Below are positions 60,030-60,119 of a stretch of 64,000 nucleotides of DNA, one piece after another. The position numbers and the translations under genes were made by a program. How positions within the stretch are numbered: the first letter of the stretch is position 1; every line of letters starts with the position of its first letter. Under the pieces are notes generated by a model that worked only from the letters and a program-made list of their open reading frames with translations, did not search any database and was not told the DNA's origin. Origin of the DNA: a virus; the IMG/VR virus record IMGVR_UViG_3300031555_003080, positions 49,285-113,284 of that record; one strand, written 5' to 3'.

Positions 60030-60119
60030 TGGCGGAGGGGGTGGGATTCGAACCCACGGACCCTTGCGGGTCTCCGGTTTTCTAGACCGGTGCACTAAGC
60101 CAGGCTATGCGACCCCTCC
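60030..60119 (-). tRNA. type-II tRNA-Ser-like with anticodon AGA (A34; reads UCU/UCN if inosine-modified)
   Basis: GGAGGGG..CCGGT CTAGAAA ACCGG + long variable arm GACCC GCAA GGGTC + GTGGGTTCGAATCCCAC CCCCTCC G CCA. Confidence 0.6.

Follow-up and report, generated by a model that had tools for sequence, protein, structure and literature searches.

Positions 60030-60119 of the window, by which we mean the whole 64-kb stretch of viral DNA analysed here, hold a class-II tRNA-Ser(AGA) gene of 90 nt on the minus strand (ARAGORN call tRNA-Ser(aga)). It is gene 22 of a 37-gene tRNA array that lies between 48.8 and 63.9 kb, entirely on the minus strand (ARAGORN), and all 37 tRNAs pass the Rfam tRNA threshold. 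The array extends to the window end, so the tRNA set seen in the window may be incomplete. Three of its tRNAs are specific for serine (UGA, GCU and AGA), and A34 occurs in only two of the 37, namely Ser(AGA) and Arg(ACG). The features used in the analysis are:

52416-52506, minus strand: CUA (amber) suppressor tRNA, 91 nt, Gln-like in its acceptor and D arm, Ser-like in its anticodon stem, with a long extra arm
53218-53310, minus strand: tRNA-Ser(UGA), the other UCN-box tRNA, with arm ACGGT/ACCGT, 72% identical to Ser(AGA)
57885-57961, minus strand: tRNA-Arg(ACG), loop CUACGAA, which fits both published TadA motifs
59480-60026, minus strand: split tRNA-Thr, starting 3 nt after Ser(AGA), with exons 60026-~59992 and ~59519-59480 and a 471-nt insert
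59533-59967, minus strand: PD-(D/E)XK endonuclease ORF of 144 aa inside the split tRNA-Thr
60030-60119, minus strand: tRNA-Ser(AGA), class II, with G73 and an encoded CCA (ARAGORN, Rfam, MFE cloverleaf and six-sequence covariation)
60085-60079, minus strand: anticodon loop CUAGAAA of Ser(AGA), with the anticodon at 60083-60081 and A34 at window base 60083
60206-60294, minus strand: tRNA-Ser(GCU), immediate upstream neighbour of Ser(AGA) (ARAGORN)

Read 5' to 3' on its own strand, Ser(AGA) consists of the acceptor strand GGAGGGG, TC, the D arm GCA/TAGCCTGGCTTAG/TGC with a large loop of the bacterial Ser type, A, the anticodon arm CCGGT/CTAGAAA/ACCGG, A, a long extra arm with a 5-bp stem and a GCAA loop (GACCC-GCAA-GGGTC), C, the T arm GTGGG/TTCGAAT/CCCAC, CCCCTCC, G73 and CCA. 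The Rfam tRNA model (RF00005) scores it at 52.7 bits (E 4e-9; gathering score 29). Its unconstrained MFE fold is a cloverleaf with a 7-bp acceptor stem, of -43.3 kcal/mol (z -3.5), with 0/200 shuffles as stable. The original prediction described a Ser-type, type-II body with G73, loop CTAGAAA and A34, and this description is borne out by ARAGORN, Rfam and the fold. An alternative fold that places a canonical Ser anticodon was looked for as well; the covariance-model alignment and the unconstrained MFE fold return the same 7-nt anticodon loop, and the concordance of the three methods leaves no such alternative.

The body of the tRNA is of a common kind. Its exact 28-nt 3' half (T arm and acceptor) recurs in 154 further tRNAs of viral and metagenomic contigs, every one of them Ser (106 UGA, 30 CGA, 10 GGA, 8 GCU and 0 AGA), and its overall identity to unrelated Ser(UGA) tRNAs reaches 87%. 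Judged by these matches, Ser(AGA) is a bacterial-type tRNA-Ser(NGA) of the ordinary sort, unusual at position 34 only. The identity set of bacterial seryl-tRNA synthetase (SerRS), established in E. coli studies, comprises G73, G1-C72, G2-C71, A3-U70, C11-G24 and the extra arm, and all these elements are present. As bacterial SerRS does not read the anticodon, charging of Ser(AGA) with serine is expected.

The split tRNA-Thr next to Ser(AGA) would have the anticodon UGU if joined after position 36-38 and occupies the site at which relatives carry an intact tRNA-Thr(AGU), as judged by synteny. The ORF in its insert matches Pfam PF11645 (E 7.7e-31), PDB 2OST (E 4.7e-9) and phrog_5018. A group I intron was considered and rejected: the insert matches nothing in Rfam at E<=10, and the ORF leaves only ~38 nt of it uncovered.

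The window has a G+C content of 38.75%. Genes on the same strand as the array include those for an NAD-dependent DNA ligase, GyrA, GyrB, a tail lysozyme-amidase, PIN-PhoH, an SPFH protein, NAMPT, a vault-shoulder-like protein, an RNA ligase (34047-35456), a radical-SAM protein and an SLH-domain protein, a set of genes typical of a very large phage. The GyrA is also present in JGI metagenome 3300032167 (3.9-kb contig), and the same sample yielded a 402-kb IMG/VR contig, IMGVR_UViG_3300032167_000002, with a syntenic tRNA array. The 64 kb are thus probably part of a much larger genome, given the 402 kb of this related contig. A megablast of the array against deposited phages gave tRNA-sized matches only, which means that there is no close sequenced relative among them; blastn of Ser(AGA) against the same phages returned generic Ser tRNAs and nothing informative on AGA, and the protein encoded at 56601-57656 within the array found no relatives among viral contigs. 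The host is possibly a Firmicute.

Conservation of tRNA-Ser(AGA) in related arrays

Relatives of the gene were collected with two baits. A scan of IMG/VR with the 17-nt anticodon arm of Ser(AGA) matched seven contigs, each of which carries tRNA-Ser(aga). Run on one genome per prokaryotic species, the scan gave 47 matches; as a random 17-mer is expected ~70 times in that amount of sequence by our own estimate, every match was checked with ARAGORN, which left ~30 of the 47 as true tRNA-Ser(aga) genes. An exact 25-mer of Ser(AGA) in which position 34 was left free had no match in viral contigs. Because the arm-based scans required AGA, the AT-rich tRNA-Asn(gtt) located ~830 nt from Ser(AGA), which is 89% conserved with contig L004 and free of any Ser anticodon, was used as a second bait and an independent test. 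It retrieved contigs L004, L224 and L225, and all three carry Ser(aga) among the same gene neighbours as in the window, beside Ser(gct), Phe, Asn, Met and Met. The anticodon stem in L224 and L225 is TCGGT/ACCGT, and this difference explains why the 17-mer scan missed them.

Identity to the Ser(AGA) of the window is 96% for L054, 94% for L027, 80% for L004 and 69% for L224 and L225, whose copies are identical to each other. The L004 copy sits on the 402-kb viral contig, and L054 and L027 are short contigs, rich in tRNAs, that were binned with Eubacteriales and Erysipelotrichia MAGs. Adjacency of Ser(gct) and Ser(aga) recurs in many phage-type arrays (L001, L004, L005, L006, L019, L029, L045, L054, L224 and L225).

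An alignment of the window copy with those of L054, L027, L004, L224 and L225 shows the loop CTAGAAA invariant in all six sequences. Eight stem pairs have compensatory changes on both sides, and four of the five pairs of the extra-arm stem covary among orthologues. Of the cells, 94.4% are paired, versus 38-57% when the partners are slid by 1-3 columns, and for four of five measures the observed values were reached by 0/500 shuffles. Ser(aga) is syntenic in the window, L004, L224 and L225, close copies are also found in L027 and L054, and every syntenic copy so far has AGA. By the alignment and the synteny, Ser(AGA) is not sporadic but conserved across the lineage, and it appears to be kept by selection.

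The original prediction also held A34 to be unusual outside tRNA-Arg(ACG), and this is what the sampling gives: in loci chosen regardless of position 34, non-Arg ANN anticodons were found in 1 of 303 tRNAs, a frequency near the published bacterial one (695 of 246,393). As a separate observation, a conserved tRNA-Ser(AGA) is also present in many DPANN archaeal MAGs.

Codon usage and decoding role

Codons were counted in 47 minus-strand genes (14,153 codons). Serine is encoded by TCT 360, TCC 82, TCA 45, TCG 8, AGT 152 and AGC 97 times, so that UCU makes up 48% of the Ser codons and 73% of the UCN box. A check of UCU against UCC had been proposed along with the original prediction, and it shows UCU, the Watson-Crick partner of AGA, to be dominant (360 versus 82). 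UCC accounts for 17% of UCN, similar to the C-ending share in other boxes and without depletion, and the U-ending codon is preferred in every four-codon box.

We conclude that Ser(AGA) is very probably a functional tRNA-Ser that decodes UCU. It would be transcribed with the 37-gene minus-strand array and processed, then charged by the host seryl-tRNA synthetase by way of its long extra arm, G73 and acceptor and D stems, and would deliver serine at UCU. With A34 unmodified it would be specialised for UCU and raise the amount of Ser-tRNA available for this codon, UCA and UCG being left to the Ser(UGA) of the phage and UCC mostly to host tRNA.

Two broader explanations were dropped. One was that a UCU-rich genome accounts for all Ser(aga) genes. 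GC-rich arrays in which UCU is only ~10% of UCN also carry Ser(aga) (L001, L006, L019 and L045), so the match to UCU richness is not a general explanation. The other was that AGA replaces GGA: Ser(gga) is absent from the 37 tRNAs of the window, from its relatives and from all large phage arrays seen, including those that have no Ser(aga). Ser(aga) is the sole UCN-box tRNA in the stretch seen of L019 (29 tRNAs), L020, L001 and L004, all of which are partial loci.

State of A34 and comparison with known systems

That A34 would need deamination to inosine, as originally proposed, is not a necessity, because AGA reads UCU efficiently without modification. Among 15 A34 tRNAs tested, an unmodified orthogonal tRNA with AGA performed best, at 19.7% on UCU; it read UCC at 1.4%, with UCA and UCG below detection (PMC11066159). 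E. coli expresses a chromosomal Ser-tRNA(AGA) that was found unmodified, and ANN tRNAs of four-codon boxes are neutral or beneficial in this host (bioRxiv 10.64898/2026.05.15.725136). Ser(AGA) has the anticodon and the bacterial cytoplasm in common with these engineered tRNAs (chromosomal serX G34A; orthogonal M. jannaschii), which are expressed, unmodified and tolerated and read UCU efficiently; unlike them, which were made in the laboratory in E. coli, it is natural and conserved. A functional UCU specialist with unmodified A34 is the reading that we tentatively and slightly favour over inosine.

The alternative is that Ser(AGA) is functional with A34 converted to inosine and reads UCU, UCC and UCA like eukaryotic tRNA-Ser(IGA), the enzyme being a host TadA with broadened specificity or a phage deaminase encoded elsewhere in the genome. 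We regard this as possible and as a serious contender. The phage already depends on A34-to-I34 conversion for its Arg(ACG), and its Arg codons are CGU 216, CGC 78 and CGA 76 times, with CGG in 0 of 577. A systematic capacity is suggested by the presence of Thr(AGU) and Leu(AAG) in related arrays. Among the few arrays seen, none has both Thr(AGU) and Thr(GGU) or both Leu(AAG) and Leu(GAG), and such exclusion is expected if the ANN tRNA takes over the decoding of NNY codons. That several arrays show no UCN tRNA other than Ser(aga) in the stretch seen would suit a broad reader better, although the point is uncertain since these loci are partial. Precedents exist as well: TadA is reported in 88% of the bacteria that have non-Arg ANN tRNAs, the naturally retained four-box ANN tRNAs that have been examined are mostly modified (in eukaryotes, and Leu(AAG) in Streptococcus and Oenococcus), and the TadA of S. 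pyogenes has gained a second substrate in evolution (PMC11472039).

Against inosine stand the loop and the deaminase searches. The sites edited by TadA conform to YUACGAA in E. coli and Klebsiella and to YUAMGRA in S. pyogenes, with G36 fixed in both (PMC11472039). Every Arg(ACG) loop in the window or its relatives fits both motifs, whereas the Ser(AGA) loop CUAGAAA, with G35 and A36, fails both, and the Ser-tRNA(AGA) expressed in E. coli is not modified by the TadA of that host. The CDA-type zinc motif [HC]AE..PCxxC is absent from all six frames of the 64-kb window and of 21 related loci. A scan of viral contigs with TadA sequences serving as bait only gave two unrelated contigs, the pattern used (TLEPCVM) being too strict to return more. 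The search for a TadA-like deaminase suggested with the original prediction was therefore carried out for the window, where none is present; as the window covers only 64 kb of a larger genome, a phage deaminase could lie outside it.

A wider form of the inosine reading, which we consider unlikely but worth stating, is a clade-wide, eukaryote-like wobble-inosine system in which Ser(AGA), present in all members seen, and the Thr(AGU) and Leu(AAG) of relatives would be deaminated along with Arg(ACG). Its enzyme would have to tolerate any bases at positions 35 and 36 and would be either encoded by the phage outside the window or a relaxed host TadA. Such a system, if true, would be a counterpart of ADAT2/3 in the bacterial world.

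Among known systems, the closest are the rare A34 tRNAs of bacteria, borne by AT-rich Firmicutes and Mollicutes, namely Leu(AAG) in Lactobacillus, Lactococcus, Streptococcus and Oenococcus and Thr(AGU) in Leuconostocaceae and Mycoplasma. Ser(AGA) resembles them in serving a four-codon box, in its encoded A34, in the AT-rich genome with a preference for U-ending codons and in its conservation within a lineage, and relatives of this phage carry exactly these two anticodons. It differs from them in being specific for serine, in belonging to a phage tRNA array and in having A36, which places it outside even the S. pyogenes TadA motif. Unlike in the bacterial cases, replacement of the GNN tRNA cannot be shown for Ser, because large phage arrays generally lack Ser(GGA). 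Ser(AGA) is a lineage-retained A34 tRNA of a four-codon box that stands apart by its amino acid, its phage-borne gene and its position outside the known TadA motifs.

Eukaryotic cytosolic tRNA-Ser(AGA), which is converted to IGA by ADAT2/3 and is the major UCN decoder there, has the same anticodon and the same A36-A37-A38 context. The tRNA of the window differs from it in its bacterial-type body (with as much as 87% identity to Ser(UGA) of bacteria and phages), its encoded CCA and its bacterial Ser D arm. An ADAT-like heterodimer is absent from the window, and we know of none in bacteria or phages.

The locus as a whole is like the tRNA arrays of huge phages and the 'L-arrays' of bacteria, with 37 densely packed tRNAs on one strand, small ORFs, homing-endonuclease-like genes and suppressor tRNAs; the Nostoc L-array (L020) also has Ser(aga) and a CUA tRNA. 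According to a review, the ANN anticodons 'prohibited' in bacteria are missing from phage tRNA sets too (PMC8007984), and the clade studied here is an exception to that rule. A literature search turned up no paper that treats phage-encoded tRNAs and A34 together, and Morgado & Vicente 2019 and the L-array paper contain no anticodon-level data. Apart from Arg ACG, anticodons beginning with A are nearly absent from bacteria for reasons that are debated, and this clade offers a natural, conserved phage exception. If A34 is unmodified, the tRNA would be a deliberate U-specific decoder; if it is inosine, a deaminase must accept loops beyond the known TadA motifs, an outcome of practical interest given that TadA is the scaffold of adenine base editors.

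Origin of the gene and less probable explanations

The original prediction noted a likeness among the anticodon arms of Ser(AGA), Ser(UGA) and the CUA suppressor and derived all three from anticodon switching within the phage. The likeness was confirmed by an alignment of the arms: outside the anticodon bases, the CUA tRNA shares 13/14 and Ser(UGA) 12/14 positions with the Ser(AGA) arm, and all other window tRNAs compared with it (35 in all) share at most 10/14. The three arms are therefore the most alike in the window (14/14, 13/14 and 12/14), and a one-base change at position 34 in a Ser(NGA) gene must once have created AGA.

The derivation itself is not supported, and we consider recent in-phage paralogy of the three tRNAs highly improbable. 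The arm CCGGT/ACCGG is the commonest single arm among ordinary Ser(UGA) tRNAs of unrelated contigs (26 of 106), the arm ACGGT/ACCGT of the window's Ser(UGA) is the second commonest, and the pattern xCGGT/ACCGx is present in 78 of 154 Ser tRNAs. As the arm is common among unrelated Ser(UGA) tRNAs, the likeness of Ser(AGA) to the window's Ser(UGA) is a family trait. The bodies are not near-identical either: over the whole tRNA, Ser(AGA) is 72% identical to Ser(UGA) and 64% to the CUA tRNA, while unrelated Ser(UGA) tRNAs reach the 87% given above. The CUA tRNA has U1-A72, G73, a 4-bp D stem, a 7-nt D loop (AATGGTA) and a long extra arm; over its first 25 nt it matches the tRNA-Gln(ctg) of the window at 88% identity, which makes its acceptor and D arm of the Gln type, and its orthologue in L224 has a different anticodon stem. 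By these features the CUA suppressor is Gln-like rather than Ser-bodied, and it appears not to be a paralogue of Ser(AGA). Finally, Ser(aga) is common to diverged arrays at the same position, and since these copies have diverged to 69-80% and all have A34, A34 is older than this phage and predates the split of the clade. From which Ser isoacceptor Ser(AGA) derives cannot be told from sequences as short as tRNAs.

Retention of Ser(AGA) mainly for an arms race, in which its unusual anticodon loop would let it escape a host anticodon nuclease or tRNA-depleting defence, or it would serve as a decoy, is even less probable. Evasion of tRNA-targeting defences by phage tRNAs is a known theme, and the RNA ligase and other RNA-related genes of the window, together with the presence of Ser(aga) in GC-rich arrays where UCU is rare, would fit this explanation; nothing that we found implicates a nuclease specific for Ser-tRNA, however, and decoding explains the match to codon usage in this clade more simply.

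An artefact of sequencing or assembly, or a degenerating pseudogene that arose by a T/G/C-to-A change at position 34, requires one base change only and would suit the rarity of ANN tRNAs, but both are taken as refuted by the invariant loop and the eight compensatory pairs, with intact stems, a retained CCA and the same A34 in each of six copies, which come from four or more other contigs or MAG contigs. Annotation pipelines should accordingly not dismiss ANN tRNAs in phage arrays as errors.

Some observations concern TAG codons, the target of the CUA tRNA. An in-frame TAG candidate at 21148-21150 was rejected, as the gene starts after the TAG, at MKSKRVWLMSGLPGSGKS. TAG serves as the stop codon in 0 of the 47 genes, and the ORF beside the CUA tRNA stays open through two TAGs.

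A split tRNA-Thr next to tRNA-Ser(AGA)

The neighbor of tRNA-Ser(AGA), the A34-bearing serine tRNA, in the minus-strand tRNA array is a tRNA-Thr that is divided into two exons by a 471-nt insert within its anticodon loop. The following features are involved:

59480-60026, minus: split tRNA-Thr, beginning 3 nt past tRNA-Ser(AGA)
60026 to approximately 59992, minus: 5′ exon
approximately 59519 to 59480, minus: 3′ exon
59533-59967, minus: PD-(D/E)XK endonuclease ORF (PF11645, E 7.7e-31; PDB 2OST, E 4.7e-9)

The endonuclease ORF takes up nearly the entire insert, for which Rfam returned no intron match, and an AATCA pentamer occurs at each of the two exon/insert junctions. 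If the insert is spliced out, the joined exons would carry the anticodon UGU, i.e. Thr(UGU); alternatively, the gene may be dead. Relatives carry an unbroken Thr(AGU) at the same array position, which is near-identical to the split gene in its D arm, its anticodon stem and its variable loop.

Distribution of tRNA-Ser(AGA) and related arrays

Among the relatives, contig IMGVR_UViG_3300032167_000002 (402,311 bp) contains the tRNA array twice, as diverged copies (L004 and L224). Both copies encode Ser(AGA) plus Thr(AGU); in L004 they are joined by Leu(AAG). The two Ser(AGA) genes are only 80% identical. These arrays could result from a true duplication, or they could derive from two related phages joined in a chimeric or concatenated assembly. 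L225 is a further locus with a syntenic array.

Outside the phages, a conserved tRNA-Ser(AGA) of approximately 80 nt, with the same CCGGT/ACCGG anticodon arm as in the window, is found in numerous MAGs of DPANN archaea (Woesearchaeota, Pacearchaeota and Nanoarchaeota; loci L010, L012, L016, L017, L021, L025, L028, L030, L040, L041, L043, L046, L047, L049, L051 and L053), often with a tRNA-Ser(GGA) within a few kb. Published accounts describe ANN tRNAs and A34 deaminases as essentially absent from archaea. A 21-tRNA cyanobacterial array on contig22 of Nostoc linckia FACHB-104 (L020) resembles the phage arrays in having tRNA-Ser(AGA) as well as a CUA tRNA, which hints at a common origin of bacterial L-arrays and the tRNA arrays of phages.

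Suppressor tRNAs and codon usage

The array encodes candidate suppressors of two stop codons:

52416-52506, minus: CUA (amber) suppressor tRNA
61296-61369, minus: tRNA with anticodon UCA (opal suppressor), 74 nt, labeled SeC by ARAGORN, without encoded CCA

The CUA suppressor looks chimeric in build: its acceptor and D arm are of the Gln type (U1-A72, G73; 25 nt with 88% identity to Gln(ctg)), its anticodon stem is Ser-like and its extra arm is long. Judged by sequence alone, it may be charged by either GlnRS or SerRS. In L224, a 97-nt CUA tRNA of the same build occupies the syntenic place (2265-2361) and adjoins a second CUA tRNA of normal length (75 nt, 2362-2436).

The 47 minus-strand window genes used for counting (14,153 codons) terminate at TAA (37) or TGA (10) and never at TAG; TGA is retained as a stop in 10 of them despite the UCA tRNA. 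Just upstream of the CUA tRNA, an ORF at approximately 52513-53190 (minus) is open over some 226 codons but for two TAGs and terminates at a double stop; its read-through protein matched no PHROG family. Together, the lack of TAG stops and this ORF suggest that some genes, at least, use TAG as a sense codon.

In the same genes, none of the 577 arginine codons is CGG and 76 are CGA. Combined with the lack of an Arg(CCG) tRNA in the window, this codon usage is the signature of decoding by Arg(ICG) alone.

Other atypical tRNAs and cargo genes

Three further tRNAs of the array deviate from the usual build:

54587-54660, minus: Gln-like body with abnormal anticodon loop (two-base anticodon 'gc' in ARAGORN; Rfam score only 34.6 bits)
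58675-58769, minus: tRNA-Ile(UAU), 95 nt, with a long extra segment 3′ of the anticodon arm
60953-61026, minus: tRNA-Asn(GUU), without CCA, its acceptor stem made up almost entirely of A and T (AAAAATT...)

Despite its A/T stem and missing CCA, tRNA-Asn(GUU) together with its flanks is 89% conserved in the 402-kb relative, and it proved handy as a clade marker.

We also judged four cargo genes of the window to be unusual:

30761-33202, minus: protein with a major-vault-protein shoulder and repeat domains
34047-35456, minus: RNA ligase
45507-47072, minus: DUF2828/DUF7788 protein
59178-59444, minus: small RelE-like ORF, located inside the tRNA array
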